A stretch of 64,000 bases of DNA, from NCBI GenBank assembly GCA_024679065.1, contig JAGIQG010000001.1, positions 144,460,001-144,524,000 of the forward strand, in the 5' to 3' direction. Positions 9,443 through 47,967 of this stretch are shown one piece after another. Numbering within the stretch: the stretch's first letter is position 1; each line of letters starts with the position of its first letter. Position numbers and translations under genes: made by a program. The notes under the pieces were generated by a model. The model searched no databases. It was not told the DNA's origin and saw nothing but the letters and a program-made list of their open reading frames with translations. The stretch is from Sphyrna mokarran (taxonomy: Eukaryota).

Positions 9443-9506
9443 ATGAACACCAAGGTTACCCTCTTCTGCCTTACTCTCTTTGTACTTTATATGGCTTCGA
9501 TACAAG
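9443..9506 (+). CDS. CXCL8: CXCL8-like exon 1 (signal peptide)
   Basis: ATG at 9443, MNTKVTLFCLTLFVLYMASIQ, donor CAAG|gtaaga, phase 1. Confidence 0.9.
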
Positions 9507-12132
9507 GTAAGAAAAGAATAAAATCCACAATTGAACGTTATTTATGCAGAATCTAGAGTTGTATTTACAATGTACATGTAAGTAAGATTTCTCCTAAAGT
9601 TCTTGTGATAGAATTGCTATTGCAATTATTCATTGGTACCTTTTATCATGCATATTAAGTAAAGACAGGAGAAGACTTACAGTAATCTGCATACTTGATT
9701 AGCTTTTATTAGCTCAAGAAAAGTAAATTTCAGTGTGTGGTAATGGACTAAAGACAACTGATAATGCCAGAAATATAAAAATAAAATTTCAGCCCAAATA
9801 AGAGTACACCTGAGGAAGAAAATTAAACTCTGCTTTCCATTTATACCGCTGCATCAATTGGAAGGTCAGGAACGAGTCTCCTCTGTCAGTGTACCAAAAC
9901 ATCTTCCAAATTCATTCACCCAAGGTTCATGAAGAATATTGACATTATTCCAAGTGGCCTCCACTGTGAAAATGTGGAAATTATGTAAGTGTTTATCACA
10001 GAATATTTATGGATTCTACTTCTTATAGATATGATATTTGAGTATTGTTTTTCATATGAGAATTCTTTATAATCAGAATAGTTTTTTAATCAAATAGTAC
10101 AAAATGGGATTGTTTAAAATGCCCCAGGAGGATAAGTGACTGGATCTTTAACATTTCAAATAAAAACTTCACTTAGTGTGAAATAAACTACTGAAAAGGC
10201 CATATTAATAAAGTTTGCTTTGGACTGAACTAGAATGTACACTTTGTTGGTAGGGATTTGGGCCACTTAACTAAACCCTGAAAATTAGCAGGTTCAAGTG
10301 TAAAAAACCTCCATGTGTGTGAGGCATATTACTCATATTTAACCATCTAAATCTTTGCAACTTAGCAACAGAGAATCAGAATATAAGCTGCTAGTGGGTA
10401 ACTAAAACCATTCTACTTATTTTGGCTCGCAGAGTTAACTGGAGTCAAATGAGAAGTTCAGCTCCGCGGGAGGGGGTGCACAGGTTTGCCTCCCTGTAAC
10501 CTATCAGTGAGCCAGACTGACTTATTGTTAATGAACAGCATTCTGGAGTTCTATAGCTCTGCCTGACTCAAGTGTTGGGTTATGGATTCTGCCAAGAAAG
10601 GATCAATCTCTCCATGACAGGTATGTTGTGTTGCAACAACTGTGACAGTGAAGAGAGCTCACTTGGCTGTTTTCCCCAATGGTCTTTTATTGATCATTAG
10701 GTCTTTGTTAGGGTATGGGTTTGAACCCTTAGTCAGAAGGAAGCACTTGTCAGGAGCCCCTTGTGACTAGTAAGTGAGCAATACAACTCATAATAAAAGA
10801 TAAATCCATTGTCACTAGCTTCCTGCTCACATCTTGGAAGCATGTCATACTCCATTGCAGGATCTTTTTGTCAGACTTGGTAACCTAAGGCAGGCAGGTC
10901 AGCATTATTTCATCAGTTAAAATCCATAGTTTCAACACCAATACATTAATTCCTTGCAAACTAATCAAAAGGGGCACCAAATATATCAGCAATATTTACA
11001 TTCCCTTCTTCTTCCCAGCCACTGTTGATTGAAAATATCAAGTTTGTTCATCGACTGTTTGCTTTTCAGCATGATTAGAGTACCTATGCACAACAGTTTA
11101 CAACATGCCAACCATCTAAATTGCTACCCATATCAAATCCAATGCTGTAGGTTGTCAACTATCTAAAACAAGTCCCCATAAACAGGGATTGCAAACAGAA
11201 AGACCAGGATTTCATTACCTTCCCAGGGTGCTGGCTTTCCTTTCCTGTAATTTATCTCCCGTTCAATCACAATCTCACTTCTCAGGTACATCATGGACCT
11301 TATCCATGGAATTAAGAGCTTCCTTCTGAAAGTGCACAAGGAAGCAGGAAGGATGTGTAGAATTAAGAATATTAACAGCATTTTTTTTTTTAACTGTCCA
11401 ACTAATGGAAAGTCAATTTGAAACAAATATTTTTTTTTTCACTTCTTTAGTGCCACTCTTCAGAGCAGTAATCGAGTTTGTCTGGATCCCGAATCCCTCT
11501 GGGTAAAAAAAATTATTGACAGGATAATCAGTCAGTAAGTTCCTACTTCTATGCAAAGCCAAAGAATAAGAATCCATATTTGCATGTCATCTTGTGCAGA
11601 TTGTTCTGAAATCATAAATAGCAGGCAAATGTAGAACCGTCTTAAACCAGTATTTCGTATTTATTTATTTACCATTTATTCCAGTTTGTATTCAGTTACA
11701 TTGAACAGTCCTCAGTCAGTTATGGTATGCTTAGACATAGCTCAAGGCATGAACGCCTTCAAAGCATCTTATGTAACTTACAAGAAGACAATACCATCTG
11801 GCTGGCAGTTAAAGTCATCTGTTAGAAAATATATGGGAAACATTCAGTAATCCCACAGTGGGAGGCATGTTTGAAGAGCATAAGGGTAGGAGTTAGGGGC
11901 TAAACCTTGTGCTGCTCATCCTGTTTGAGTGCACAGGATGGGAGTGTAATACTGTGGGATTTAGGTCAATGTTCTGATGGGTTTATAAAGACTAAAACTT
12001 CACATCACTCCTTTTGGATCTAAAAACTATCACATTCTTATGGAAATAACAATAAATCACAACTGTCTTCTTTTTTACATACTCTACAGTTCCAAGAAGA
12101 CTAATGAAGATAAACTCACTGTGAAATTCTGA
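9443..12132 (+). CDS. CXCL8: CXC chemokine, interleukin-8/CXCL8-like; join(9443..9506,9849..9984,11451..11534,12090..12132), 108 aa
   Basis: Spliced translation: MNTKVTLFCLTLFVLYMASIQAASIGRSGTSLLCQCTKTSSKFIHPRFMKNIDIIPSGLHCENVEIIATLQSSNRVCLDPESLWVKKIIDRIISHSKKTNEDKLTVKF*. Signal peptide, CQC motif, (P)SGxHC-xNVEII and VCLDP..WVKKII are CXCL8-family motifs. Exon 1-3 CDS sizes of 64/136/84 nt and phases 1,2,2 match mammalian CXCL8. All splice sites are GT-AG except the intron-1 acceptor (CG at 9847-9848). Orthology versus paralogy is not established. Confidence 0.9.
9849..9984 (+). CDS. CXCL8: CXCL8-like exon 2 (CXC motif)
   Basis: (A)ASIGRSGTSLLCQCTKTSSKFIHPRFMKNIDIIPSGLHCENVEI; donor AT|gtaagt. 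The 5' boundary is uncertain: ttataccg| at 9848, or the in-frame cag| at 9869. Confidence 0.85.
11451..11534 (+). CDS. CXCL8: CXCL8-like exon 3
   Basis: Acceptor ttttttcacttctttag|; (I)ATLQSSNRVCLDPESLWVKKIIDRIIS; donor CA|gtaagt; 84 nt. Confidence 0.92.
12090..12132 (+). CDS. CXCL8: CXCL8-like exon 4 (coding part)
   Basis: Acceptor ttcttttttacatactctacag|; (H)SKKTNEDKLTVKF*; phase compatible with exon 3. Confidence 0.8.
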
Positions 12133-12799
12133 AGAGGATGACAACGCATACACATTCCAAGGACTCTGTACAATTCAAGAATCCATATTTGCATGTCATC
12201 TTGTGCAGATTGTTCTGAAATCATAAATAGCAGGCAAATGTAGAACCGTCTTAAACCAGTATTTCGTATTTATTTGTTTACTAATGCTAGCACTTGCACA
12301 GCAACATCCAGATTTTTTTTGTTATTGGACTATATATTTTGTACCATTGTATCTGACTGATGGCTTCCTGAAGACTAGATGTGAGATTTTCACTATCGTG
12401 TTTGCAGTTTCTAAGTAAGTATATTGGTAAACTGATGGCGAGTTGCCATTTAGCAGATGACACAGTGCCATACTTCAGTTTCTTAAGGTTACACTGCACT
12501 GTTGCCAGTAAAGAGTCAACTATCCTGACATCATTTTAACACACTAAACATTTCACCATAATTTGGACCAAGATGAATAGAGCCATGTACTTCAATATAA
12601 GCAGAAGTGCACAGATTTGCGCTCACATGACTAGCGAGCAATGTTACTCAACACTGCCAATAGACAGTCGAGTAGACAGTCCTCTAAAGCCAATCCCACA
12701 ACATAACCATGGATCTATGATCTGACTAGTTTATCATATTTTTTCACCTTTGTTGCCAGCTTAAGATATTGCAGGGTAAAGTCAAATGGCAACAATATT

Positions 12800-12911
12800 G
12801 ACCAGAATTGATTGCTAGCGAGAATGGAGAATTTGGTGCTCAGCCAAAATTCCATTCACTGCAGCGGGACAGGAGAATTTCAACTATGGGCAAAGTCAGA
12901 GAATTTTGATC
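12800..12911. mobile_element. Short MITE-like element in the CXCL8-like 3'UTR
   Basis: Imperfect termini gaccagaatt...aattttgatc; related sequence in opposite orientation at ~46370-46470. Confidence 0.45.
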
Positions 12912-13157
12912 ACTATTTCTTATATTACTATTATTGTCAGTATTAATTCTGATTCTGTTAGTTTATTACAAAACCATTTAATACCCTTCACTATTTATGT
13001 CTATCCAACATCAAATGATTATTCTTGTATCTATTGCATGCAGGAACAACAAAATAGCTTTTGAAACTTTTTTCTTGATTACCTTTAATTTAATTTAATT
13101 GTTCTAATAGGTTGCACTCCTTAGAATTGTTATACTTATCAAGAGATCACATTTTTC

Positions 13158-13233
13158 ATTTATTTATTGTAGAGCTGAAATGTGCAATGTCTTGCTTCCT
13201 TAATAATTGAATTTGCTTAAAATTATAAATAAA
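13158..13233 (+). promoter_or_regulatory. CXCL8-like 3'UTR AU-rich element and polyadenylation signal
   Basis: ATTTATTTA at 13158-13166 in an AT-rich UTR; AATAAA at 13228-13233. Confidence 0.55.
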
Positions 13234-13599
13234 ATATTTTGGAGTTATTATTTAACATGTATATGAATTTTATTGTATAATACACTACACGATAGGTTTA
13301 ACTTACACAGGGGTTACAGAGTGTCACAAAATGACACAACCATGTCTAACCTCTCCAAGAGACCTCTCAACAAACAGAATCTCCAGAACGTGTGCTGATT
13401 GTCATCAAGGGCAGATGATTTGACATCTGAAAATAATGGATTAGTTTCCTAAGTGTTGTGAATAAGGCCAGAGGATTCAGGAAGTGGAGACTTGTAGCTT
13501 GCACATTGCTCCATAATCTGTGACTAATTACCCAGTCAATTTGACACAGCTTCCCTTTCTCAAAATTTGTTGCTTGAGGCTCAGCAGCTTCTGGAAGCA

Positions 13600-14180
13600 A
13601 ACCCACTCCTTAGTCCACCCTTTCTCTCTGCTCCTCCCCTCCATCCACCTCCCCTCCCCTCCATCCACCTCCTCTCTGCTCCTCCCCTCCATCCACCTCC
13701 CCTCTGTCCCCTCCTCTCTGCTCCTCCCCTCCATCCCCTCCCCTCCGTCCACCTCCTCTCTGCTCCTCCCTCCATCCACCTCCCCCCCGTCCACCTCCTC
13801 TCTGCTCCTCCCCCCCCCTCCATCCACCTCCCCTCCGTCCACCTCCTCTCTGCTCCTCCCCTCCATCCACCTCCCCTCCGTCCAGTTCCACTCTGTTCTT
13901 CCCTTCCATCCACCCTCCTGTCTACTTCCATCCTGTTTCTCCACTCCGTCTGCTGCCACTCTCTGTTGCTCCTCTCTGTTCACTTCACCTACCCTCTCTG
14001 CTGCCCCCTCTATTCACCTGCCCACCCCCCATCCTCTCCCTTCCATTCTCCTCCCCTCTCTGCTGCTCCTCCTCCTTTTCCTGATCCCTCCATTCACCTA
14101 CCCGCCCTCAGCGCATTTCTCTCCAATCCCTCCCCTCTCTGCCACTCCCCTCCATTCACCTCCACTGTCTGCTGCCCCCC
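13600..14180 (+). repeat. Pyrimidine (C/T)-rich degenerate minisatellite
   Basis: Repeated ctcctctctgctcctcccctccatccacctcccct units; source of the low-complexity ORFs in several frames. Confidence 0.9.
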
Positions 14181-17100
14181 TGTCCAGCAGCAGGCCCATG
14201 AATAGCAGACTGCTGCTGCTCATATTGCTCCTTGTCCAAAGTCCAATCTTAATGCAGCCATTGCTCCCAATCTGACCACTCAGTCCTCGCCCGCCACAGT
14301 GTTCCAGTGAAGCTCACCATAAGCTTAAGGAACAGCACCTCATCCTTTGACTGGATACTTTACCGCACTCTGGACTCAAAATTGAAATCAACCCAGGTGC
14401 TTCTTTGCCAGTTTGTTTTTCACTCTTATTTCTCTTATTTCCTCTATGTTTTGTTCTGATGACAGCTATTCTGCTACTCAGAACTCCTCTAGACACATCT
14501 GTTGTTTTTTACGTGTCCCACTACCACTCCCTTGGGTCTTGCAATGTGAAACCTTTTGTCATTTAATCCCTCCCACCCACCACTCTGTACAGACGGTCCC
14601 TTTTTTTATGCACAATCCTGCTTTCACTTGTTCAAAACCTACTTGATATCTAGTTTTTCCCCACTGCTAATGAACCTAGAATGTTTAACTCTGTTTCTTT
14701 CTCACAGATGTCAATGGGCATGCTGAATATTTTCAGCATTTTCTGTTTTATTCCTGACTTTCAACATCCATGTTATTTTGCATTTGTGTAGTTGTGATCT
14801 GTCATGACAACCATTGAAGTCAGCTGTATCAACATTTAAAAACTTAGCAATTACGGTTAAATGTCTCCTTTTTATACCTAATATTGAATTTAATCGTATT
14901 AAGATCGCTGTTAAATAAATTTTCCCCTGCTGAAGTATCTTGTACGTTTGAGAATATTTCTTTTTGGCACACAATGTCTTCTGATAATTCTAGATGTTTT
15001 CCTCCAACAAACATATACATTCCACTTTTTAAAATATTTCCATCAGTTTATCATTAGCAGATAGTCTCTTACAGTAATAATCTGTCAGCAAATAAGGTCA
15101 CTTTGCTTGCACGATTTCCTGACAAAACACAACAATCCAAGTCTCCAAATTCTTATCTGATTTCAAGAATTTCATTTATTTGTCAAATATATAATTTGGG
15201 ATACAATTAATTAAAGTATCATTTAATCAATTTTTGAATCTGATTTGTGTAAAACCCCTTCCCTCCCATAGAAAATCATCTTTAAGATCAATTGATCTTA
15301 ATAACTTTGCTGTTCTTAATGACTCCCATTATCTCCAATCTTTAGAGCATGACGCAAGTCACATAACTCAGATGATGAAAAATATTATGAGATTAATTTA
15401 ATCAAAAATAGTTATAAAAAGCTTCAGTTGCCAGCATCACTAATTCATTCACAAGTCCTTTGTAAAATTCATTTGCATTATTTCATGTTTCACCCATTTT
15501 TTAAAATATTAGTCGCATTCCTGTCCATAACTAGATCTAATCTATATTATCTGCACTAAGGCATTCATACAGGAGAGTACAGCAAGAAGTCTGACAACAC
15601 TGGGTTTAAGTCCAAATCGGTTGTTTATCCCAGTCCAACACTGGCATCTCCACTACAGGAGAATATCCAGTGTGCTTCACAGCTGTGCAAAGAAAAAGCA
15701 AATTCAGATGTCCTCGTACCCTATTGTTCTTGAAGTGTTTTTTCACATAAGATCTGCACTTTGTCAATGTTTTACAACTGTGCTTTCATTTATATCATTA
15801 TTATACTAATACTTCGACTTCACATCACAATCAGATATGACTGTGGGTTTTGAGCAGAGATAATCCAATGGTGCTCCACTAGCTACATTATGAATAATGA
15901 TTCAAACCTTCTCATATTTAATATTCACAGCTGCTCGTGATTGCTAGCCCTAGCTTGGACTCACTGCTAGGCTGAGAAGTATCTCAGCAGACATCTGTGA
16001 AAAGGGAACATAATCGGAAGTTCTAGGAAGCCTAATGCAAAGAAACATGAAATGTTGTTAATCACCATTAGACAGTGCCTGATATGCCACTGCATGATAA
16101 TATTTCGGACCATCCAAATGAGTTTGTGGGGCAGGACTGGAAGACCTATCAAAATCTGGGAGCATTATGATTGTAGATGCTTTGAGTAAGGACTGTGCAG
16201 TGGAAGTGCTGGAGATTCGTAAGGTAGGAGAACATTTTCTTAAAAGAAAACTAGTAGAGGAAGTAATAAACTTCAGGGATGCAAACTATCAACAAGTAAA
16301 AGTTAATTAATTCTTACTTGTGGAAAGTAAAGAGGAAGAATGAATTCAGTCAGATAAGAGTAGCTTTCCCCACAAGAAGAAAAACAGTTCAGACTAGTAT
16401 TGCTATTTCCCTGTTTTACTGGTATTCCATTTTAAAATATACAAGACCAGTATTGCTATTTCCCTGCTTTTTCCTTTCCGATCTCCAAAATTGCACTTTC
16501 CTTTTCAAAAAAAAATCAAATTGCAAATTTCAGTGGAACTAAATCCATTTTATTGGAATAATTTTCCTGTCCTGCCTGCTATGGGAATTGTAGCGGGCAG
16601 GATATGGACAAAAGGTGCGTTGACCTTGGGCATGATTTTCCAGGCTTGGAGTGAGCGCGGCCAGAAAATCTTGCCCATGTGTCTCTATTTCAAAATGTAT
16701 CAAGCCCATCTTCAAACACACTTTCCCTAATCCCTTAATTCTCCCATTTGCTGAGGATATAATTTCACATTGAAATAAACAGTCAAAAACCATCAAAACA
16801 AAAGTAAAATACCACAGATGCTGCAAGTCTGAAATAAAAAGAAAATACACTGGAAAAAATACACTGGAGAAAGAAACTGAGTAAATTGTCTGAAGTGAAT
16901 ATGACTTCTTCAGGTTCTGAACAAAAGTCACATTGGACTCCAAGTTTTAACTCTCTCTCTATCCAATAACCATTCACATTTCTGTGCACCTTAAAAATAT
17001 TGATTTCTAGATTAATTAGCTCTAAAAATACCATTTTTCATGATAAACCCAAATTGTGCGCATAGGGGTTATTACATAATTTGCAGAACTAATTTCCATA

Positions 17101-18783
17101 GTGGCCTTCCATAGAAATCAATTTCTTTAATTTGATCATTTAATTAAACAGTCCAAATTACTCCAAAACTTTGAAGTTTAAAAATAGAAAATGGTCATTG
17201 TTTCTGATAAATAGATCTTCAATTGCTAACATCACTATTAACTTTCAAGGACTGTTGAAATGGAAAGACAAATCTACCATTTGAAGTGGCTGCTCTTCAA
17301 TTTCTGGCTCCACTTCAGCCAGAACTGGACTGCACTGGACTGTTGACCAGCTGATGTGGAGAGAGCTTGCTTATTGGAGGGCCTCCTCAGGACTACTGCT
17401 GGGCTTGGCTAAGGCAGCCACACACAAGATCAGGCAGTACGCAGTGAAAAGGAGCTAAACCATCTGCGTCTCTTCCAATAGTTGCATTCATGCTGGCTGA
17501 ATTTGGACCGGGAGTATGTGGGATTGCCAGTGGGCTTGATGCCTTCCACAGCCAATGAGCACAGGAGGGACTGGAATGCTTTGTTGATATGCAGAATCAT
17601 ATTCTAATTTAATTTGTTAGGTTCCATTTTGTTTAAACCATAATATCAGTTTTCATAAGGAAAAAACAGTAAAACTTGGGAAATTACTGATGCTAGTCTG
17701 AACCGGTACGATGTACATTAAAGAGAGCTCAAGTCTGTATCAGTACCCACCATTTCCAAGTTTTAGTGATTTCTCCTTGTTTGTGTCTGCTTCTTCAAAG
17801 TTGTCACTAGTTAACTGGATAATGACATAATTATCTAAATTGGTAATTAATAAACAGGATTAACTTTCAAAATCACATCACTAGCAGCAAACTTTCACGC
17901 ATTCTTTCTTTTTTCTTTTTCTGTGGTATCTTTTTCAACAATCAGTTAATAATCAATGTAATCTCCAATTTTTAGCTGGTTACTATGATATCATCTGGAA
18001 ATCTTTTCTTGTCTGGATTTCAGCAAGACCAGCTTTATCCATGTTGGGAAAAGCTGGTGTTTTTCGACACAGCAAATTGTACTTACATTCCGAAATTCCA
18101 TCCTTCAATTCTTTCATCCCACCCTCCACTTTGAAGGTTCCTCTCAATGCTCACCTATTTTTTCAAACTTCTGGTTAACCCTCCTAATATCAACTTCTGT
18201 CTCAGCCTCTCTTATTATCTGATTATGCTTTTGTGAAAAGTTGGGATACATTTTTCTGTGAAACAGGCATAATATAAATGCGAGGTGTTGTTGGATCAAT
18301 TTAATTGACATCGAAACTTGAAAACTCCAATTAGATTGCCCCAGTGGCAATAAAAAAAATGATAAAACCTGGCTTCAGATTTGGTCACAACATTCTTACA
18401 GTTACTTAATTATTTTAAGTCGGGAAAAGCCCCCAAATATTAGCCTTCTATTAGAATACAGGATATGCAAAATAACATATCAGCAGATGTCTGGGTATAA
18501 AGTGTTGCCATTTCCTGGCTGTAGCCACAGATTTACTGTATTTAGACCTTCTACTATTTCCAAAACCTTCGTAATTCCCACAAGGGAATTCAGAATGAAA
18601 AAAACAATGAGGTGGCTTTACAATATTTAAGCAGAGCAAAAGGAGCAGTTTCAAATTGGGCAGCTGTTTAGCGTGTAAAAGTTGTCGATGGGGCACACCC
18701 AATGAGGACATCATCCCTTTCCCACTCCTCGCCCTGACCCTTCCCCAACCACCTTCCCACAGTTTCTAAGGGAGGTGAAGATC

Positions 18784-19120
18784 TAGTGGTATTATCACTA
18801 GATTATTAATCCAGAAACTCAGCTAACGTTCTGAGGACCTGGATTCGAATCCTGCCACAGGTGATGGAATTCGAATTCAATAAAAAATATCTGGAATTAA
18901 AAGCCTAACAATGACAATGAAACCATTGTCAATTGTCAGAAAGACCCATCTGCTTCATTCATGTCCTTTAGGGAAGGAAAGTTACTGTCCTTACCTGGCC
19001 TGGCCTACATGTGACCTCAGAGCCACTGCAATGCGTTTGACTTTTAACTGTCCTCCAAGGGCAACTAGGGATAGGCAACAAATGACAGCCAACCAGCAAC
19101 TCCCGTGTCCCACAAGCAAA
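18784..19120 (+). mobile_element. tRNA-derived SINE, family B
   Basis: tagtggtattatcactag (A box), ggattcgaatcc (B box); body shared with 5682-5963 and 55853-56175. Confidence 0.7.
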
Positions 19121-19186
19121 AGAGAAACTTGTTTTTCTGAGCATGAAGGAAGAACATTCACAAGCAATCAAGCAGGTCCATCTATT

Positions 19187-19395
19187 AACATAGAACATAG
19201 AAAACTACAGCAGAAACAGGCTCTTTGGCCCACAAGTTGCGCTGATCATATCCCTACCTACTAGGCCTACCTATAACCCTCAATCCATTTAATTCCCATG
19301 TACTCATCCAGAAGTTTCCAAAAGACCCCAATGAGTTCTCATCCACCTCCACCGACAGCAGCCAACTTCACTCACCAACCATCCTCTGAGTGAAT
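19187..19395 (-). mobile_element. CR1 LINE 3' end fragment
   Basis: (catagaa)n tail and 3'UTR similar to 56200-56730. Confidence 0.7.
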
Positions 19396-19799
19396 AAATA
19401 TGGAAATCAAACTCAGGTGATATCACAAGTGTAAGCTTTTAAGAATGTTTAGAGAGATAGGGCATTGCAAGGGTTAAATGACCCCAAGTATTTTTCTAGA
19501 GGTTTAGCTGTTAACAAGTAGACCACCTTGGACCTTCTGCTGATTGCAGTCCTAAGTTGCATCATGAGTGATCACACAATTGCAAAGAAAACACGTGCTC
19601 TTGCTTAAAATCTGAAGAAAAAGAAAATTGGTGACCCATTCTTAGGAGTAATGTTTGCTAAGGAACATTAATTGGGGCAATGCATGATTGCACTGCACCC
19701 AATGGATCTCATGCAGGCAGCAAACAAACTTCATGTTGTCTGTGATCTTTATGACAGTAGCTTGGAATTCAGCGCAAAACATATTGCTGAATGACCACA

Positions 19800-21512
19800 T
19801 ATAGAACATAGAACATAGAACATTACAGCACAGAACAGGCCCTTCGGCCTTCGATGTTGTGCCGACCAAAATAAAAAGCAATGCCCCTCCAAACTAACCA
19901 TTCCCTTCTCTTCCATATACTTATCAATTAACCTCTTAAACGCCACCAAACTTGGCGCATCTACAACAGCTGCAGGCAGGGCATTCCACTCCCTAATCAC
20001 TCTTTGAGTAAAGAACCTACCTCTGATATCCGTCCTATAACTCATACCCCTTAATTTAAAGCTGTGTCCCCTCGTGCTACTTTCTCCATCCTAGGAAAAA
20101 GGCTATCACTGTCCACCCTATCTAAACCTCTAATCATCTTATATGCTTCAATAAGATCCCCTCTTAGCCGCCTCCTTTCTAACGAAAACAACCTCAAATC
20201 CTTCAACCTCTCTTCATAGGACCTGCCCTCCATACCAGGCAACATCCTAGTAAACCTCCTCTGTACCCTCTCCAATGCCTCCACATCTTTCTTATAATGT
20301 GGCGACCAGAACTGCACACAATACTCCAAGTGCGGCCGCACTAGAGTTTTGTACAGCTGCAACATGATGCTGCGGCTCCTAATTTCAATCCCCCTACCAA
20401 TAAAAGCTAAGACTCCATAAGCCTTCTTAACAACTTTATCCACTTGACTGCCTACTTTCAGGGAGCTATTGACACATACCCCAAGATCCTTCTGTTCCTC
20501 AACACTATTAAGAGCCCTACCATTAGCCCTATACTCTACACATTTATTGTTCCTGCCAAAGTGCATTACCTCACACTTTTCCACATTAAACTCCATTTGC
20601 CACCTCTCGGCCCAGCTCTGCAACTTGTCCAAGTCACTCTGTAAACTAAAACACCCCTCTTCACTATCTACCACTCCACCAACTTTAGTATCATCTGCAA
20701 ATTTACTGATCCATCCCTCAATACCCTCATCCAGATCATTTATAAAAATTACAAACAGCAGGGGCCCCAAAACAGACCCCTGAGGCACACCACTCGTCAC
20801 CGAACTCCACGATGAATATCTCCCATCAACCACCACCCTCTGTCTTCTATCTGCCAGCCAATTCCTAATCAATTAGCTAAATCACCCTCTATTCCACACA
20901 TCTGCATTTTCTGTAGAAGTCTTCCATGGGCCACCTTATCAAACGCCTTACTAAAGTCCATATATACTACATCAACCGCCTTACCCCCATCCACCTCTCT
21001 GGTCACTTTCTCAAAAACTCAATGAGGTTAGTAAGGCATGACCTACCCTTCACGAAACCATGCTGACTATCCCCAATCAATTCATTTCTCTCTAAATAAC
21101 TATAAATCCTATCCCTAATAATTCTCTCCAATACCTTGCCCACAACAGAAGTAAGACTCACTGGCCTATAATTCCCTGGAATGTCTCTCTTCCCCTTCTT
21201 AAACAATGGGACCACAATCGCTATCCTCCAGTCCTCCGGAACCACACCCGTAACCAACGAGGACCTGAAGATCAGAGCCAGAGGCTCTGCAATCTCCTCT
21301 CTTGCCTCCCAGAGAATCCTAGGGTAAATCCCGTCCGCCCCAGGGGACTTATCCAACTTCAAACCCTCGAGAATTTCTAACACATCCTCCCTATCTACTA
21401 CAATACTTCCCAACTTGCAATCCTGTACCTCAGTGATCTCCATAGCTACATTTCCAGCACTCTGCGTGAATACCGAAGAGAAATATTTATTCAGTGCCTC
21501 ACCAATCAGCAA
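19800..21512 (-). mobile_element. Young 5'-truncated CR1 LINE (RT domain and 3'UTR)
   Basis: ORFs 21003..21512 and 20051..20872 contain PGNYRPVSLTS, QHGFVKGRSCLTNL, GVPQGSVLGP and FADD; (TTCTATG)n tail at 19800-19822; broken by small frameshifts. Confidence 0.95.
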
Positions 21513-22164
21513 GGGCAGGTAGATTCATGCAAGGTAACATTAATTAAAGCTAGCCTGTTCCTCCGAAGCAAGAGAGAAGTTTTGGCTGTAACAGACGCTC
21601 AATGTGGCTGGGCAAGACATTCTCAAGAAGAAGAAACAAGAGTTCTGGACCATCAGGCTGGAGAGGGAACTCCTCAGTCAGGATGTACAGAACTGAGTCT
21701 GTTACTGAGGTTAGAAAGATAAAGAGAGTTTATCTCTCCACAGGGAATCAACCCTGAGGTGACCCTTCAGAAATAAACTGTGAAGGGAGGGGAAGTGGAT
21801 AGCCACGGAGATCAATGTCAACTGTGGTGCTACAAGGGCCTGGTGAACCTTGGCCAAGCTGTCAGGTCTATGCACATATCTTCAAATGCCAATACCTTCC
21901 AAATGCACCACCATCCTCACACCCTGATAAATGTACCACACCTCCATCACTCATTCATCAGCAATCCCTGGCCTTCCCTCCTTCTGTGCCATATAACCCC
22001 CTGTGCCTCCTCTACCACCCCCTACACCCGCCTTCACCCTTTTATACTGACCTGGTCCTGGACTCCAGGACTGCTGGTGATCTAAGTCCTGCCCATTGCT
22101 GCTCTGCTGGGACAGCCCAGCTGTTGGCAGCTATCTGAGTTGGGGCTTTGTAGAGTATTAAAAA

Positions 22165-22315
22165 ATGAAAGCAAAACACTGCGGATGCTGGAAATCTGAA
22201 ACTAAAACAGAAAGTGCTGGAAAAATTCAGCAGGTCTGGTAGCATCTGTGGAGAGAAAATAGAGATAATGTTTTGAGTCCATATGACTTCTTCAGAGCTC
22301 TGAAGAAGAAGCATT
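22165..22315 (-). mobile_element. Short Penelope-like dispersed repeat (other copies at ~6780-6870, 14650-14780, 16790-16960, 36105-36190, 38710-38810, 41185-41300)
   Basis: Shared ctctccacagatgct..cagacctgctga..ttttccagca..ttctgttttt..ttcagatttccagcatc; palindrome ttcttcagagctctgaagaa. Confidence 0.6.
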
Positions 22316-29955: not shown

Positions 29956-29959
29956 ACTT

Positions 29960-34320: not shown

Positions 34321-35254
34321 GTCCAGATTAATATTAAATTGTGTTTTGATGAGTGGGACTGGTGCCCTGACTCCTGCCCCTGTTATTACCCAGTGTTTAA
34401 AAGGACAATGATCCAATGAATGGCCTTAGGGCAAACTGACTGTCCACAAAATCACTGGATTGTCATTCCTCCATCCAATCAGAGATTGCAGCCATGCTCA
34501 CCACTGTAGTGCCCTGTTCCTGATGGTGTGACAAGTCAAGACAACTGGAAATGTGGTTTAGCTGCAGTGGATATTCATCAACACTTTCTTCACCGGTACC
34601 AATAAATCTTACAGCTGTCCACACAGCTGTGCTGTAATGCTTTCAGTACCAATGAGGGAATACCATTTCATCTGCTACATCTGTCAAGGCAGCTATACTG
34701 TGCGTTTGACAAAGGCTGGTTGGGGGTAAGCATTCTCTCTCACATGTGGGCATCAGATGCATGCTATCCTCACCTGGAATTGCCCTGCAATTCAACACAG
34801 TTACCGGGATGTGGCCACTGCCTTTCAGAAGAAGCAACTTGGAGCCCCAGCTGAGAGCCGGGTGTCAAGGATCATTGTGACCAAAGTGAATCACTTCACA
34901 TTTCCCCACATTATCTGCTGCTTTATTACCCTTTCACTTCACATGTCTTTATTTCTTTTCAGCCTCTGTGTTGACTAGGCATTAATGTAGATTGTGAATA
35001 GTTGAGGCCCACTGTTGATCTTTGCAGCCCACCAATTTGAAAATGCCCATTTACTCTCTGCTACCTGGTGTTAACCAATCCTCCACCTATGCTAATGCAT
35101 TAATCCAGAACTGCATCTGCGACTTTTGTCTGCCAACTTATCAAATGCCTTTTGGAAACTATCCTACACTTCTACTTCCCCTTTATCTATTCAACTAGTT
35201 ATATCCTCAAAAAACTCAAATGAGTTGTCAAATATGATTTATCTTCAAGAAAAG

Positions 35255-35550
35255 GTGCAGTGGCACAGTGGTCAGCACTGTTACCTCACAGCGCCAGGGA
35301 TGTGGGTTCAATTCTGGCCTCGGATTACTATCTGTGTGGAGTTTGCATGTTCTCCCTGTGTGGGTTTTGTCTGGGTGTTCTGATTTACTTTCACAGACCA
35401 AGATGCACAGGTTAGGTTGATTGGCCATGTTAAATTGACCCTAGTTGTCAGGGGATTAGCAGGGTAAATATGTGGGATTATTGGAATAGGGTCTAGGTAG
35501 GATTGGGGTCAATCCAGACTTGATGGGCTGAATGGCTCCTTCTGCACTTT
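35255..35550 (+). mobile_element. HE1/V-SINE-like SINE
   Basis: gtggcacagtggtcagcactg...gggttcaattct..., conserved core and CR1-like tail. Confidence 0.8.
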
Positions 35551-38500
35551 CCACTATCTGATCATGCTATAATTCTCTGAGTGTATTGCTAAGACTTCCT
35601 TAGCAATAGGTGCTGCATTTTCCCAAAACTGATGCCAGGTTAACTGTCCTGTAGTTCCCTGTTTCTTTTGCCCTTCTTTCTCAAATGGCAGTGTTACATT
35701 TGCCTACCTCCAATTTGGGAATCTGAGAAATTTGGTAAATCGTAACTAGTGCATTTCTGCACTATTTCTTTTCCAATATTGAGCCTTTAAAATCTCAAGT
35801 CCTCAGCTCTTTGGGAGATGTAGCAATTTTTTTGAAGCTATATTTGCTAATTTTCTAAATTGAAATGTACAAGTTCTGCATCAACCCTATCCTAACTCAC
35901 AATTCCACTTCTCACCTCTATCTCTAATATCGTTAGGATAAGTAGGATCAGAGAAAGCCATTCGACACTTTGAGCCTGCTTCCACCATTCACATTGATCA
36001 TGATTGATCATCCAACTGACCCTATCTCTACTCTTTGATTCCCGTTGCCCTAAGTGCTATGTCTAACTGTATACAGTATGTTCTCAAGCAATAAATAAAC
36101 AATTTCCTTCTGACAAAGGGTCATCTAGACCCCTCCTCTCCCTGCAGATGCTGTCAGACCTGCTGAGATTTTCCAGTATTTTCTGTTTCTGAAACAATTT
36201 CTTTTCACTGATTTACCCCAAGCTTATTTTTAATAAATTTGTAGCTATCAAGATTTTTTGCTCATTGTAATGGTTCAGGAAAAAACTTAGAGGATATATT
36301 AAAGACAAGTATCCAGAAAAGATTGGACTAATAAGAGGGATTTAATAAAGGAATTTAACAACTGGAAAACCTATTGAACTTATCTGGGAGATAACTGACT
36401 GAATAACCATATTGCCTGCAGGTTACTCTGGATGTTAGGGGAGTTTCATCAAGAGAAGCCTTACTCTGGTGTTTCCATCTATTTATACTAGCTCCTGCCC
36501 TCACAGTGGGCTTGTCAATGGAATGATTGCATAAGTCAAGCAACTGACAGGCAATTCAATGCAATGAGCAGTTTTTAAAACAGTGACTTTCTCACTGTTT
36601 GTGCAGCGGAACTGACTTATCCAAAGAATTATCCACATAGGAGCTGCTACATTTCCAATCAATCTGCATAACTGAAGTCCTCCTCCCTATGAATGATTTC
36701 TACCTCCTCTCTACTGTTTTCACATGCCTAAGTTAAATGTTAACAATTAACAAAAGCCACCATAAGTATTTTTTTGTAACTATCATACCTGCAGAAGGAG
36801 TTTGAGACATGGATGCAAATCAGAAGATAATGGCAGATTTGAACCAAACTGCGAAGGCACACATTCTTTCAGAACAGATCATTGTTTACACCTCCAGTGA
36901 ACTGAACAAAGAACATTACAGCACAGGAACAGGCCCTTTGGTCCTCCAAGCCTGCACTGACCATGCTGCCCAACTGAACTAAAATCCCCTACCTTTCTGG
37001 GCACCATATCCCTCTATTCCCATCCTATTCATGTACTTGTCAAGATGCCTCTTAAAAGTCACTATCATATCCACTTCCACTACCTCCCCCGGCAACGAGT
37101 TCCAGATGTAAAGGATCTGCTTCGAACATCTCTCTCTGTGTAAAGAACCTGCTTCATATATCTACTTTGATAGATGAATGCCGTGCAGACTTAGTGACAC
37201 CCAGTTCAATTGGAGGCTGGACGCATAACGTGAAAGGACTGCACTTGACAGTTGAAGGTTCAAAACCATATTCTGTAACCGCCAAAATGGAAAGTAGTCA
37301 TCTCATTGAATCTTCCTTCCCCTGCCCGAAATTAGTATTGAACAGGCCACAGAATCTTCCAGATGAGTGTGAAGAAGGGAATGAAAGAAACAACTTGGAG
37401 CTCCAGCTCTCTCTGCTTTTTGCACCTCCTTCAACAGCATCTCCAGAGAACAACTTCAACTGGGAGCCAAACACAACAGCATCTCCAGCTCCTTGTACCT
37501 CATGGCGAGCAGCATTAGACTGACCAGATCCACCCCGTGAGATGATCTGAAGTCCAGAACCAGCCCTAAATGAGAAGGAAAGCCCAAATCAATGACTGCA
37601 GATCCTGAAATATCAGCCAACGCTCAAAGACTGGGAAATGTTGCAGCATTATTAAACAGGTATTACCAGTCTTTTTGGACAAACAGTTCAAATATAGTGA
37701 TAGAGGCCTGTAAATAAAGTGTACCTAGTGTCGATTTGAGACTATTTATTTAGATATTTAAGACTGTTCACTGAAGAGTCCTGTGAAAAAAATGATAGAG
37801 TTTAATTAAAGTACAATAGTTGATTCTGATAACTATTGTTTTTCTTTGATAAAGTGTCCAATAAAGTTGTGTTGGACTTTCACTTATCTCACCATGTAAT
37901 GCGCCCAAATTAAAAAGGATTACTGCGTACAGGTCAAGTTTAGTTAGTGTACATCTACCCACCTTTCAGTTTACAGCACTAGCCAGTGTCATCTGCATCA
38001 GGTAAAAGAATTAATAAAACACTGATCTGGCCTTTCTTAGACCTCAATATTGAACTCCTTTTGCCATATTTTTATGCACTTAATTTATCAATATCTGTTT
38101 GCAATTTTCTGCTTTTATATGAACTATTAACTATGCTGCATAATTTAGTGATCTTGGCAAACTTTGAGATACAAGTCTCTATTCTTTCAACTAAGTCTAT
38201 TACAAATGAATTAAAACTAAGATCCTGGGACAGATCTTTGGGGATAGCACTAGCCACATTCTGAAGAAAGCAAGAAAGACTTCTATTTATTTAGCATCTT
38301 TAATGAACTTTGAATAGTCCAAAGTACAATGCAGCCAATTAAGTACTTTTTGAAGTGTAGTCACTGTTATAAAGTAGGAAACACAATAGTCATTATGCAC
38401 ACAGTAAGGTCCCACAAATAGCATTGCGATAACGACCATATAATTGGTCTCTCGGTTGAGCAATAAATATTGGCCGGTGCAGAGGGAAACCCTACAGCTT

Positions 38501-39146
38501 TTCTTTAACGTAATGATGGATATTTTACACGTACATGGAAGTGCTGACAAGGCCTCAGTTTAACATCTTTCTGAAGGATGGCACCTCCCACAATGCAGCA
38601 CACTTTTAGTACTGCATTCAAACCACAGTTGGATTATTTGCTCAAGTCTCTCAATTGAATTTTAAACCCAGGATCTTCAGACACAGAGATAGGAGTACTA
38701 CCCGTCTCTAGGCTAACAAAGGGTCAACTAGAGTCAAAACATTGGCACTATTCTCTCTCCACAGATGCTGTCAAACCTGCTGAGATTTTCCAACATTCTT
38801 CTGTTTTTGTAACCATTATCTAATGTCTCTGACCCCTAACCTCTAGTTCCTTACCTATATCAATGGGTTGCCTCCTCTTCCATGCATTCTCATTTTTGTT
38901 AGCAATCCTTTACGCACAGCTTTAATGAATACCTCCTCTAAATCCATGGATTTTCTCTTATCTACCACATTAGTTATCTCCTCAAAAAGTTCAACAAGAA
39001 GTTCAACAAATTTCGTTAGGCAAGCTTACCCTTTACAAATCATCCTGATTATTCAACTTTCATGGAACCTTGTTTAATTCTCACTCAAATGAATACTCTG
39101 CACAGTCCTGTTCTCCATATCATGTAATAGACATGGAGAGTGAAGG

Positions 39147-39391
39147 TATAAAATAGACTTCTAAGGACGATTTCTGTTTTTCTTTAAAATGCCCAGAATC
39201 AAAGACAGGGTTACTAGCATCTTCTTTCTAAACTGCAGCAACTTCTTAAAATGGAACAGAAACTAACCTGGAGTTATTAAAAGAAACAAACCCATAAGAC
39301 AAGCAAAACAGTTTGCTGTTTCATTTTCTTTAGGCTACAGTTGTGGCCAAGTGAACAGCTGCCGCACGAAAGGAAGATCACTGAAGTAGAC
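39147..39391 (+). promoter_or_regulatory. Candidate J chain-like promoter/5' region
   Basis: TATAAAA at 39147-39153; E-box CAGCTG at 39356-39361; ETS-like AAAGGAAG at ~39369-39376. A good acceptor (ttttctttag| at 39333) would instead imply an upstream non-coding exon. Confidence 0.3.
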
Positions 39392-39458
39392 ATGGTGAAG
39401 ATTAAACATATGCTAGGGCCACTAGCAATAATTCTACTTTTTACAGCTCTTGCAGCAG
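39392..39458 (+). CDS. JCHAIN: J chain-like coding exon 1 (signal peptide)
   Basis: gacATGG Kozak context; MVKIKHMLGPLAIILLFTALAA; donor GCAG|gtaatg, phase 1. Confidence 0.85.
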
Positions 39459-42400: not shown

Positions 42401-45400
42401 TAGTCAAACCCTTGACATTCAGAAGTGGCTCTTACAGCCACTTAGAATATTGGTCAGCAGCTTTTTTTTAGTCTGTGACCTGTTGGTGTGACTCCCAGTC
42501 CATCAATGTACTCCTGTTAAATAGCACTGGTCCTTTGCCATTCACTTTGACAATAAGAGATTCATTGTGTGCATTTGATAAGCAAGATCTCAACATTCAT
42601 ATCAGACCATTACTCATTCCACTGACTGAAATTTCATCAGGGCTTCAATACAGGAAGTATTAGTTCCTCTTTTTAATGATACTGCATCAGATTTAGAGAG
42701 CTGGTAACTATGTCTATCTTTACAGTTGACACCAACAGCCACCTTCTAGTTTCGTCACAATGTAAGCTGTTAGAAGTGAAATCCAGAATGGTTGTAACTG
42801 AAAACCCGAACGGTGCAAAAGTGGAACATGTTGCAAGAGATATAAAAATTATGTAAGTTGATTTCTGATCGTATTCACTGTATAGTAAAATTAAATGGAG
42901 AGGCAGATTACTAGAAGCTGATTAGAGACAGTTTTGCACCATGAACACAAGAAAATATGTGGAAAAGGCATATAATAGAGTGGAGACCATCATTTCATCA
43001 TTCAGACTGAAAGCAAGGTATAACATAGTTCTCCCGTCAGAAACATAGGGATTTGGACACAACCATCCCACTACCACTGTCCAACACAACAATTTCATTC
43101 CCATGATGAGTGTGGAGACTGGAGAATCTGTCAAATACACTCCTCCATTTCTACACATAAAACTATCAGAATTCTGAGGAATTCTATTAACAGTTTAAAA
43201 GGTTTCAGTGGCAGGCAAAGTAATGCGCACAATTTCGATGCTAATTATTCTTGTAGAATTTCTCCTAAAGAAATGACAAACTGTTGCTGCAATGAACCAA
43301 AAAGCCAGCGACACGGATTCGATTCCAGCCTTGGGTGACTGACTTGTCTGTGTGGGGTTTGTCTGCATGGGTTTCCTTGGGGTGCTCTGGTTCCTTCCCA
43401 CAATCCAAAAATGTGAAGTTTAGGTGGATTGGTCATGCTACATCTCCTCTGAGTGTCCAAAGATGTGTAGGTTAGTTGGATTAGCCATGGTAAATGGGCA
43501 GGATTATGGGATAGGGCAAGGATAGGCCTGGGTAAGATGCTTTTTTGGAGCGTTCATGCAGATTCGATGGGCTGAATGGCCTGTTTCTGCACTGTAGGAG
43601 GTTATATGATCCTCTGAAGAAAACTGGAAAATAGTAGCACCACCAACTAGATTATGCAGTTGATTGAACAATGGGTGAACCTGTCCAGGTCGTTGGGCAT
43701 GGAGCTACATGAGCCATTAATGGGAAATGTAGAGACTGAAAGGAAAATCAGATCATGGAAAACAAGCTCATACCAACTGATCACAAGATAAGGAAGATCT
43801 TTTATCACATCTCAGTTTTATCCATTTCAAAAAGGCATTGGAGAAGATACAGAGGAGGTTTACCAGGATGTTGCCTGGTATGGAGGGCAGGTCTTATGAA
43901 GAGAGGCTGAGGGATTTGAGGTTGTTTTCGTTAGAAAGAAGGAGGCTAAGAGGAGACCTTATTGAAACATATAAGATGATTAGAGGTTTAGATAGGGTGG
44001 ACAGTGATAGCCTTTTTCTAGGATGGAGAAAGCTAGCACGAGGGGACATAGCTTTAAATTAAGGGGTGGTGGTTTTAGGACAGATGTCAGAGGTAGGTTC
44101 TTTACCCAGAGGGTGGTAAGGGTATGGAATGCCTTGCCTGCGTCAGTTGTAGATGCGCCAAGTTTGGTGGCGTTTAAGAGGTTAGTAGATAAGTTTATGG
44201 ATGAAAGGGGAATGGTTTAGGTTAGAGGGTCACTGCTTGTTCCTAATTGGTCGGCGCAACATCGAAGGCCGAAGGGCCTATTCTGCGCTGTAATGTTCTA
44301 TGTTCTATGTTCTACCCCACTGTGGCACAGAATCATTTCTTAATTGATTCACGAGTTCTTTCCCCCAAGTATTCTATTCATAGCACAGCTTTACAATATT
44401 TCGTCCAATAAGGCACTGAATTACTCAATCAGTTTCAATTTCACAATGAGTTCTTCAGTTGATGTGGAACTACCTTTTTCGATCACGTCAGCAAGAAACA
44501 CTCTAGTGGTTGTAGGTTCAGTTTGAGTCAGGATACACACATTGCTTTAGATGTGAAGTTTAAAGTTACTTAAAAGGAGCAATATAACCTACCTTTTATT
44601 CTATGGATTACCCAGCTTGCCCTTAGCTTTGGCATTGCTACTCAGCTTTATCATAAAGAACTTTAAATGCTTGATTTTATTTAACAGCATCATAAAATTC
44701 CATCCACAATGATCTAGAAGCATATATTGAGGGTCTCTAATAATCTCGGGATGACTATTAATTGCTCTTTCATTGCAGAGTTCCCCTGAGAACCAGAGAG
44801 AACATTTTAGATCCAACCTCCCCAATTCGGACCCACTTTGTCTACAAGATTTCAGATTTGTATGATCATTATTATTTTTATGAATTTTATAATGTATAGT
44901 TGTAAAATCTGAATTGGAATGATGATTGCAATGTATTATGTGTGTGGTGTATAAACGAGTCACATCTTTGATGTGGCATTTTATCCTCTGGAAACATAAT
45001 CACAATGCACCCAGTGGTTCCCCTTTATCCACAGCACCGGAAAGATTCACCGGTGGGAGGTGGCACTTTGTTTGCTAGCAATGGGATTCTCTGGTCCCAC
45101 CACTGTCAATGGGAATTCCCATTTACATCACCCCATGCTGACGGGAAACCCACAGGTGGAAATGCGCTATTGGTGGAACAGGAGAATCCCACCGACATGA
45201 ATGACCAGAGAATTCAGCCCACATATTACTTCGTCAAAGAGTTCCAATAAGTTGGTTAAGAATGATTTTCCTTTCACAAAACCATGTTGGCTCCACCTGA
45301 GTGGCTTGAATTTTTCCAAGTGTCCTGCTATAACATCTTTAATAACGGCATCTAATGTTTTCCCTATGACAGATATTAGATTGTAATTTCCTGTTTTCTG

Positions 45401-47967
45401 TCTCTGAATAATGGAATTACATTGCCATCTTCCAATCTAATGGCACCTTCCCAATCTAATGGGATCTTCCCAAATCTCCAACAATTTACTCAGTACCACT
45501 TCTCTGCCAACTGTAATTTTCTTAAGTTCCTCCCTCACTTTCATTTCCTTGTTTATAGCTGCTTTTGAGGTGTTACATGTAGCATACATTTGAGGACAAT
45601 GAATGTGGGCTCAAGATTCTGCCCATAGGCCATCAGAACTGTGTCACAGTTGAGTCCAAAAGTATGGAACTGACCTCCAGCTGCTGTACAAAGCTCTGGT
45701 GTCTCATCTACCTCTATCTATGCTGTTCTTGAATCCTTTCCCTGCCCATCGGACAGATGAAATGCCTGTTTATGTTTGGTTCTGCTGTTAATTACTGCTG
45801 GAACAGATTTCTAACCTGTCATCAGAAGCTACAGCTTGCACGTCTGTGGTAAGCAATGCTGACCAGGAGACACTCCCCCTCTTATTGTCTGCTTTAGTAA
45901 CTTGGAAAGTTTGCAGGTTGGTAATCAATCTGATTGCCTCAACATGAATGTACCCTCTATGGCTATCGAGACGCAGGGGAGGATTTGAACCCAGAGCTTC
46001 TGTCTTAGATGCTGGGATACTATCCACTGCACTACATGACATTCTTCTGCCTCTGTAGCATGCTTTAACTTATGCACATAGTAGAATGTGAGCTGGTAGC
46101 TGCAAGTATGCAGTTGAGTGACATTTATATTGTTGATAAGTATCTCTTTGCTTTTCGTATCAGCTACTCTCCCTTTCTCTTTTTCCCTCTTTCTATTTAT
46201 TCTGTCCGATAGCTCATAGTCCTTTCTCTGTTATTCCATTTGTCATTTTCAGCTGTGTCACATTTCCCTCTGTAATCTCTTCCAATGCAGTAACAATCCC
46301 AATCCCATTACAATTCCTTTTATCCCTGGCTATCTCAGCTAATCATTGATCAACTGAAGGGTAGCAATGAAAGTCCTGCTGCAGTAAACAGAGATTTGGC
46401 TGAGCGCCAAATTCTCTGTCATTGCTTGTAGTGGTCTTGCGGTATGAATGGCTGGAGAATTCTGGTTACTAGGCGGAATTTTCCAACAAATTGTCGGAGC
46501 ATCAAGCTTTTTCTGAAACCAGGCATGCTTCTCTCCAGAAACGCAGCTGAGTATTCATGCTAGACATCCCAGCACTCTGTGCACAGAAAATCTGGGGGAG
46601 TGTTTACACTGTCGCTCTGGTGGGATAGAGGGGCTGATAGATCCAAGGATTTGGAGCGTCAACTATAAAGGACATTTAAAATAATCCCACCTCCCACCCC
46701 ACCCACCCTCCATCTCCATCCCTGACCTGGACAAAGAGCACCAACCCACAAGCTTTGGGGCGACTTCCTTCCAACTAAAGTATCTGGGGGCACTCTTCTC
46801 ATCCCCCCTCCCCTGCACCGTCATTGGGGATCTCCTCTCCCCCCACTACATATAAAAAGTAACCCCTCCTCTAAAAGAGGAAAGTTAGCACCCCCCAACA
46901 TTGCCCATATGGCACTGCCAGGTGCTAGGGGGCAATGCCCTGACTTGACACTCAACTCTTGGGATTTCCAGGCACGTATGAACCCCTGGCATGATCATCA
47001 CAACTCATTTACACTTTTGAAAATCAGTAGTAATTTGCACTGGCGTGTCGTCATACTGCTGGGAAAGGAAAGAGGTTCCAGTATGGGCAGAAGCTACAAC
47101 ATAAAGCTGTTTAAGTTTATTTAAATTTATTCAAACTAATGAAAATGAGATTCATGCCAATGGGGAGGGAGTGGGGGGAGGGCTGGAGAGAGAAAAGGTG
47201 GGGGAAGATCACAAATTGAGACATCACTGGCACAAATCCTGTTTCGACCCTCTCACAAGATTATAATGTACCCATGGTGAGCAGAGCCACTAGACCTCAC
47301 CCAGTAACTTCATCATTCAGAATTTGACAGGGTCAAATGTAGAATTTTCAGCCAGGCTTTACCCAGCAATGACCCTATATTGGTTTTTAGTTGAAGAACT
47401 GCACTTCTTGAGAAAATATTGGTAGATTCTCTGGAACCACTTTCCTACCAGCAATGTGATTGACTATCATTAGAACATTAATATTAATCCCCCACTTCCT
47501 TGTATAACTAGTTTGACTGTGTTGTATATTGCCCTATTGAATTCACTACAAATGGGAATTGGTCACACGTAAAAGGGTTTCTAGTCATTGTGAACATGCT
47601 AACTGAATTAGAAAATTAATTCTAAACAGATTTAACTGCATGTGATGTAAACTTGTTTTCTGAATATCTAATGACTGTAAGGAATCAGGGCTATGTACTT
47701 AATGACAATTATATCTTTTATAATGTATCTTTTTGCAGCTGTAAGGATTGCTCTCCAAAGACATCTCCACAAATACCTCAGTGCAACCCCAAACCTCCAC
47801 CTGTGAGTGAATGTTACGCCCACGACAACAAAACGTGCCTAGACTATCAAAACCATTCACGATCGCTTGTTCTTAAACATCTATACGATGGTCAAGGGGA
47901 TCTAAAACCTACACTGGCACCTATTAAAACAACAAGAGATTTGTCATCAATATCAGATGCTCCATAG
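39392..47967 (+). CDS. JCHAIN: Immunoglobulin J chain-like; join(39392..39458,42726..42852,44779..44859,47739..47967), 167 aa
   Basis: Spliced translation: MVKIKHMLGPLAIILLFTALAAVDTNSHLLVSSQCKLLEVKSRMVVTENPNGAKVEHVARDIKIIVPLRTRENILDPTSPIRTHFVYKISDFCKDCSPKTSPQIPQCNPKPPPVSECYAHDNKTCLDYQNHSRSLVLKHLYDGQGDLKPTLAPIKTTRDLSSISDAP*. IIVPLxxRENIxDPTSPxRTxFVYxxSDxCKxC matches human J chain (IIVPLNNRENISDPTSPLRTRFVYHLSDLCKKC), and ECYAHDNKTC matches ETCYTYDRNKC. All introns are GT-AG, phases 1,2,2, and exon 3 is 81 nt. Confidence 0.93.
39990..40660 (+). mobile_element. Old CR1 3' fragment in J chain intron 1
   Basis: Decayed KANGILAFI..GLKYK..LLQLYRTL and RRMRGD..EVYK motifs. Confidence 0.65.
42726..42852 (+). 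CDS. JCHAIN: J chain-like coding exon 2
   Basis: Acceptor tctatctttacag|; (V)DTNSHLLVSSQCKLLEVKSRMVVTENPNGAKVEHVARDIKI; donor AT|gtaagt. Confidence 0.92.
43290..43612 (+). mobile_element. HE1/V-SINE-like SINE in J chain intron 2
   Basis: ggattcgattccagccttggg, conserved core, CR1-like tail gatgggctgaatggcctgtttctgcactgtag. Confidence 0.75.
43833..44314 (+). mobile_element. Young CR1 3' fragment in J chain intron 2
   Basis: ORFs 43838..44062 and 44023..44220 are nearly identical in protein to the 19800-20300 copy; (ttctatg)n tail. Confidence 0.9.
44779..44859 (+). CDS. JCHAIN: J chain-like coding exon 3
   Basis: Acceptor ctctttcattgcag|; (I)VPLRTRENILDPTSPIRTHFVYKISD; donor TT|gtatga. Confidence 0.95.
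47739..47967 (+). CDS. JCHAIN: J chain-like coding exon 4
   Basis: Acceptor tatctttttgcag|; (F)CKDC...QC...ECYAHDNKTC...DAP*; corresponds to ORF-track entry 47653..47967. Confidence 0.92.

Follow-up and report, generated by a model that had tools for sequence, protein, structure and literature searches.

A spliced JCHAIN gene at the end of a CXCL8-like chemokine cluster in Sphyrna mokarran, beside a chemokine copy that is likely a young pseudogene

The window analyzed here is a 64,000-nt stretch of the Sphyrna mokarran genome (C1:144,460,001-144,524,000) that carries a CXCL8-like chemokine gene and a J chain gene (JCHAIN), both on the plus strand. The distance from the chemokine stop codon to the J chain ATG is 27,259 nt, and the interval between the genes (13220..39391) holds LINE reverse-transcriptase fragments (20051-21524, minus strand) and simple repeats. 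The original prediction had placed the genes 27 kb apart with no recognizable host gene between them, and this was borne out: an ORF and Pfam check together with CXCL and J profile scans recognized no host gene in 13220..39391, and the five inter-gene ORFs of ≥150 aa gave only reverse transcriptase in Pfam (2/5, the other three having no match). Profile scans over 104 kb found no CXCL or J remnant between the genes; the best extra CXCL match in these scans (E 0.04, near 38.3 kb) was taken as chance. DNA contigs of run X1, which is possibly the source of the window, match both genes, and the order of the genes agrees with that published for other sharks, which speaks against a misassembly between them. 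Elsewhere, the window contains a minisatellite at 1247-4242 (34-nt unit, 88 copies, 91% matches), a near-complete LINE on the minus strand at 58577-61748, with a GDSL esterase-like ORF, an endonuclease and a reverse transcriptase in three frames, and, besides the fragments at 20051-21524, more LINE sequence at 50688-52178.

Six further CXCL8-like exon 2 copies lie upstream at C1 144.04-144.43 Mb (all <440 kb), and CXCL cluster A spans C1 144.04-144.47 Mb; a second CXCL cluster is found at 113.0-113.2 Mb. Downstream of JCHAIN, on the minus strand, an annexin gene occupies C1 144.54-144.59 Mb. One of its exons scores alike for A6, A4 and A5, which identifies it at the family level, and we infer from the published whale shark order that it is probably A5. 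The linkage of JCHAIN to a CXCL cluster and an annexin is thus present, as in other cartilaginous fish with anxa5, and the CXCL clusters, JCHAIN and annexin stand in the same order as published for whale shark. Profile and sequence searches of the animal's own genome, in which at least one JCHAIN locus was found, returned no second copy. Among the other chemokine loci, L026 (C1 ~144.431 Mb) is a divergent paralogue whose exons 1 and 2 measure 55 and 139 nt and in which the end of exon 3 is altered, and the CXCL8-like copy at L031/L011 (C1 ~144.037 Mb, minus strand) has a frameshift ahead of its CXC motif and is probably, like the window copy discussed below, a pseudogene. CXC chemokine exons at L005/L034 (C1215 ~94.68 Mb) and L018 (C905) fall outside both chromosome clusters.

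JCHAIN consists of four plus-strand exons. Exon 1 (39392..39458; 67 nt, phase 1) encodes the signal peptide, exon 2 (42726..42852; 127 nt) carries CKL in place of CXC with its Cys at nt 36, exon 3 (44779..44859; 81 nt) matches Pfam Ig_J_chain (E 2.3e-9; 37.7 bits, cut-off 27), and the coding part of exon 4 (47739..47967) encodes five Cys and a shark-type C-terminus. In run X2, all three introns are spliced as predicted, and the RNA contig ends at 48108, with an AATAAA at 48091. The closest named protein, the J chain-like protein of Mustelus asterias (P0001), is identical at 143/167 residues and in turn finds human J chain at E 2.9e-19. The mammal-type arrangement of eight Cys with CXC and an N-I-S site is replaced by six Cys, CKL and NIL; these mammal-type cysteine and glycosylation features do not define the family in sharks, where CKL genes have been filed as jchain (PMC10801876). 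P0001 has the same six Cys and CKL and, unlike the window gene, keeps the otherwise conserved NIS sequon. NIL is common to the window gene and the Scyliorhinus torazame J chain (P0002), and other sequons of the window protein lie at residues 122 and 130. With mammalian J chain (PDB 6kxs, 8bpe), the window protein shares the signal peptide, the exon 3 block and equivalents of Cys13, 69, 72, 92, 102 and 110, whereas it has no equivalent of Cys15 or Cys135, its C-terminus is unrelated, and the mature protein is basic (pI 8.5), unlike the mammalian one.

The CXCL8-like gene, likewise on the plus strand, begins with a signal-peptide exon (exon 1, 9443..9506; 64 nt, phase 1, GT donor), with transcript coverage from 9395 on. 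An ancestral exon 2 (9849..9984; 136 nt) with the CXC motif and the third Cys follows, then exon 3 (11451..11534; 84 nt), and exon 4 with the 3' UTR (12090..13219), in which the ancestral-frame stop ends at 12132; the RNA contig end at 13219 lies near an AATAAA at 13228. Exon 2 matches Pfam IL8 (E 3.2e-5), and the closest named relative of the conceptual protein is an interleukin-8-like protein of Mustelus asterias (P0003; 90/103 residues identical), for which IL-8 ranks first in PDB (E 1.8e-24). At the DNA level the chemokine hallmarks are present (signal peptide, CXC and two further Cys, IL8 domain, WV motif); the ELR-like motif (ELR, SLR, DLR, NLR) before CXC is missing, SLL standing in its place. 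Changes in exon 2 comprise R33L at the xLR position, which is Arg in 14/14 other aligned chemokines, and P59L. In the tree, the window chemokine groups with P0003 and P0004 (support 0.95) rather than at the base of the cluster, with P0003 as its sister (support 0.91). P0003 is annotated with a full exon 2 N-terminus, SLR and GPHC, whereas the window chemokine reads SLL and GLHC, is longer by five residues at its C-terminus and has a dead splice acceptor. A 110-nt piece of the 3' UTR (12176-12285) is duplicated in intron 3 (11567-11676; 106/110 identical); the intron 3 copy is missing from DNA contigs of two relatives, so the duplication is recent.

The dead acceptor lies at 9847..9848, where CG stands in place of the AG carried by paralogues (AG in 4/5 other plus-strand cluster A copies). 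Transcript evidence comes from run X2, which bears the same organism code as the window and derives from another sample and study. Its RNA nature is our guess, for which the GT..AG joints in both genes argue. The sole X2 contig on the chemokine gene (1326 nt, 0 differences) comprises 9395-9506, 11451-11534 and 12090-13219 (joints 9506>11451 and 11534>12090); it bridges exon 2, which none of the X2 contigs covers. This is one run with one chemokine contig, and assembled contigs drop minor forms, showing the presence and not the absence of isoforms. The exon 2-skipped RNA encodes 39 residues, a signal peptide with a frameshifted tail: the CXC exon is lost, exon 3 is out of frame, and the stop falls 28 nt before the end of exon 3, that is, before the last junction. 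A stop this close to the last junction falls inside the usual limit of nonsense-mediated decay. The skipped RNA would thereby escape decay and persist.

With CG at the acceptor of exon 2 and an RNA contig that skips this exon, the window copy is likely a young pseudogene. The original prediction had treated the 136-nt exon 2 as a working exon, and of its exon boundaries those of JCHAIN agree with the RNA while those of the chemokine do not. A literature search, with subscription journals outside its scope, showed no earlier report of the skipped exon among the matches listed. Decay has counter-evidence in an exon 2 whose frame is open and in four intact chemokine Cys; in a relative-rate test, private changes in exon 2 numbered 5 versus 0, which is not significant (binomial p 0.06), and in comparison with the J chain they stood at 11:5 (Fisher p 0.28).

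The intact frame and cysteines would also fit a chemokine that remains functional through a downstream AG, with the skipped RNA as a by-product. The AG at 9868-9869 restores the frame; of the AGs tested in 9800-9890 it alone yields a full-length frame, and it would define a 115-nt exon 2 (9870..9984) and a 101-residue protein without seven N-terminal residues. Whale and zebra shark possess a 64/115/84 cxcl gene, with its Cys at nt 15, adjoining jchain (PMC10801876), and the paralogue L002/L027 (C1 ~144.390 Mb, 110 kb upstream of the J chain) likewise lacks the usual AG before exon 2: a stop lies in the 21 nt that follow, and an in-frame AG at the 115 position avoids it and leaves a 115-nt exon with SLR. 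We nevertheless consider this explanation doubtful. The 115-nt form, like the rest of exon 2, appears in no X2 contig, another AG, out of frame, precedes the rescue AG by 5 nt, and the xLR Arg lost here is present (SLR) in the annotated 115-nt genes; with its SLR and 115-nt pattern, L027 is likely the counterpart of the whale and zebra shark gene, and a better candidate for that role than the window copy. A sequencing or assembly error in an intact gene is far less probable still. The CG differs from AG by one base and the rest of the frame is open, yet a short-read X1 DNA contig (possibly from the same sample) shows 0 differences over 9200-11597, the CG included, and exon 2 is skipped in the X2 RNA, whose sample and study are different.

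The matching architecture of the two genes was confirmed on the DNA. Exons 1 to 3 measure 64/136/84 nt in the CXCL gene and 67/127/81 nt in JCHAIN, both genes have phases 1,2,2 and place the first Cys at the 12th full codon of exon 2, and both exon 2s end in ATTAT/gtaagt, an 11-mer that occurs only twice in the window. The identical exon end is less telling than it appears, since it combines a conserved Ile-Ile split codon with the commonest donor: among 18 chemokine loci examined, of which 15 could be parsed and 3 could not, exon 2 ends in ATN AT/gt in 14/15, the donor is gtaagt in 10/15, and the exact 11-mer is found in 2/15 (window gene included).

The two genes are, as identified, a CXCL8-like chemokine gene and a JCHAIN gene of matching architecture, and the explanation in print is that a CXCL gene was co-opted (PMC10801876). 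In seven elasmobranchs and elephant shark, jchain lies downstream of the CXCL8-like cluster A and adjoins anxa5 (PMC10801876), and the same study (Kawasaki et al., 2024) describes 1-2-2 phases for both jchain and cxcl genes, with CXC in corresponding positions. For whale and zebra shark, the table gives jchain exons of 67/127/81/226 nt, puts the Cys at nt 36 and remarks 'CKL (not CXC)', as it also does for bamboo, great white and cat shark, and most cluster A genes of sharks and rays have 64/136/84 with Cys at nt 36 (PMC10801876, Dataset S1). The window has in common with whale and zebra shark the 67/127/81/226 jchain with phases 1-2-2, Cys at nt 36 and CKL, the 64/136/84 CXCL8-like genes upstream, the opposite-strand annexin next to it, and a second cxcl cluster ~31 Mb off on the same chromosome. 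It differs in the gap (46-47 kb there versus 26-27 kb here) and in the neighbor, which there is an annotated 64/115/84/25 SLR gene and here a copy whose exon 2 has a CG acceptor and is skipped. The main claim of the original prediction was thus already published in 2024 with the same numbers, and the window adds one more shark to the table. The 64/136/84 pattern would be the shared plan of the whole cluster and would mark no special tie between these two neighbors.

Descent of JCHAIN from a CXCL gene has been proposed, although homology programs were reported to find no likeness between them (PMC10801876). We compared 19 J chains with three shark CXCL8-like sequences in hhalign, signal peptides included, and obtained a co-linear match of 86 columns (probability 74%, pairwise P 2.9e-5; 64% with 12 cartilaginous fish sequences); mature regions only gave P 3.6e-4. 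Against 15 shark chemokines, the mature regions scored 22.75, which was reached by 0/150 column shuffles, by 2/150 with the CXC part fixed and by 13/150 once CXC was removed. In the alignments, the residues at the exon 2/3 junction fall together without prompting. The profile-profile check of the two proteins thus yielded the co-linear match, which is lost within the shuffles once CXC is removed, and it gives a weak hint of J/CXCL homology at the level of sequence without amounting to proof.

Broader searches gave no significant chemokine match. The J profile against 1.84 billion representatives gave 23 matches at E ≤ 0.001, with no chemokine by score and inspection (16/23 read, all J-like). 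An IL-8/MGSA chimera at E 0.62, from the J profile of alignment A1 against PDB sequences, was absent with A2 and A3 and was rejected. An AlphaFold2 model of the Mustelus J chain (P0001, 14 sequences) reached a mean pLDDT of 46 and a pTM of 0.29. With this low-confidence model, Foldseek ranked J chains highest (best E 7.8e-3), the matches listed including no chemokine, and VIA-align gave a best Z of 3.9 and no chemokine among the best 50. At a pLDDT of 46 the model is uninformative for the fold; J chain reportedly folds only when on IgM.

J chain has a role in IgM pentamers, and the cysteines of the window protein bear on this role. Across 19 aligned J chains, all six galeomorph proteins have CKL and six Cys, and the other 13 keep CXC; lineages were checked for four species in this alignment, and the remaining species are placed by general taxonomy. 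CXC is kept in Heptranchias, rays, skate, a chimaera-like sequence and tetrapods, and all eight Cys are present in 4/4 full-length proteins from Heptranchias (sevengill shark), Pristis, Mobula and Narcine. The window gene has CKL and six Cys like the 6/6 galeomorph database proteins; all seven are without Cys2 and Cys8 (mammalian C15 and C135) and keep Cys7, the C110 equivalent (Cys125 here), which is left without its partner. According to PMC11729874, mouse J chain has intrachain bonds C13-102, C72-92 and C110-135, its C15 and C69 bond the IgM tailpiece, and a C15S mutant still gives pentamers, less well. Incorporation of J chain into polymeric IgM is stated for sharks in PMC4279169. For nurse shark, PMC3743840 gives the missing Cys as Cys3 and Cys6, in conflict with the Cys2 and Cys8 missing from the galeomorph proteins of the present alignment. 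A literature search, again with subscription journals outside its scope, showed no earlier report of the paired loss among the matches listed.

The original prediction had regarded loss of the second Cys of CXC as informative about how the disulfides were rewired. The loss is confined to the sampled galeomorphs, was already noted in PMC10801876, and affects the Cys that in mammals bonds the IgM tailpiece (PMC11729874). Judged from the alignment, it is a late event in galeomorphs, and one that concerns immunoglobulin binding rather than how J chain arose from a chemokine. Being late, and affecting a Cys that is IgM-tail-bonding in mammals, it gives no date for the rewiring of a chemokine into J chain. 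The window J chain would bind the IgM tail through Cys93 (mammalian C69) without a C15 equivalent. That the galeomorph J chain was rewired as a unit, with the orphaned Cys125 taking the second IgM-tailpiece bond in an alternative pentamer closure, is an idea we hold at low probability, and a replacement of C15 by Cys125 is speculation.

Two readings of the locus as a whole compete with descent of JCHAIN within a cluster whose members turn over. One, which we judge improbable, is that the JCHAIN/CXCL likeness is a coincidence of linkage and common exon phases. The J-profile search without a chemokine, the absence of a structural match among the matches listed for the low-confidence model, and the fall of the profile score within the shuffles after removal of CXC all agree with it. 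Against coincidence stand the linkage of JCHAIN and CXCL across jawed vertebrates and the combination of 1-2-2 phases with an exon 2 CXC, which is unique in the human secretome (PMC10801876), and also the unguided co-linear alignment, with its paired junction residues and its rarity among full and CXC-fixed shuffles. The other, which we consider very unlikely, is that the locus keeps an ancestral CXCL-JCHAIN pair unusually intact and that CKL records the rewiring from chemokine to J chain. It draws support from the agreement in exon lengths and phases, in the place of the first Cys and in the end of exon 2, and from the gap of about 26-27 kb, the shortest among the sharks compared. From the coordinates in PMC10801876 Dataset S1, however, we computed that the gap ranges from 46 to 104 kb across five sharks and measures 17 kb in elephant shark; sawfish has 29 kb, and two caecilians have 29 and 32 kb. 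The gap here resembles those of sawfish and the caecilians and exceeds that of elephant shark. The gene next to JCHAIN also differs by species, being the 115-nt-exon gene in whale and zebra shark and a frameshifted pseudogene in great white shark (PMC10801876), and the original view that the ancestral tandem is preserved very tightly is not supported by this comparison. Most shark and ray cluster A genes share these exon sizes, CXC is retained in 13/13 non-galeomorph J chains aligned, its second Cys bonds the IgM tail in mammals (PMC11729874), and the window copy groups with P0003 and P0004 instead of lying basal to cluster A. Birth and death of chemokine copies next to a stable JCHAIN explains the locus better than a preserved ancestral pair.

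Taken together, we conclude with considerable confidence that the window contains a single spliced galeomorph-shark JCHAIN ending a CXCL8-like cluster, in what is likely its arrangement of origin, and that the nearest chemokine is likely a young pseudogene. JCHAIN would stem from duplication of a chemokine gene within such a cluster, the descent itself being drawn from the literature, and chemokine copies beside the stable JCHAIN would be born and lost. The weak sequence-level hint from the profiles touches a homology that the programs of the 2024 paper missed (PMC10801876). The chemokine beside JCHAIN turns over and can be broken, and therefore no single neighbor is the 'ancestral partner'. 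The cysteine pattern raises the question of how a galeomorph J chain, with one of the two mammalian tail-binding Cys missing, closes IgM pentamers. Since the mouse C15S mutant still assembles pentamers, less well (PMC11729874), galeomorph sharks are a natural version of that mutant.
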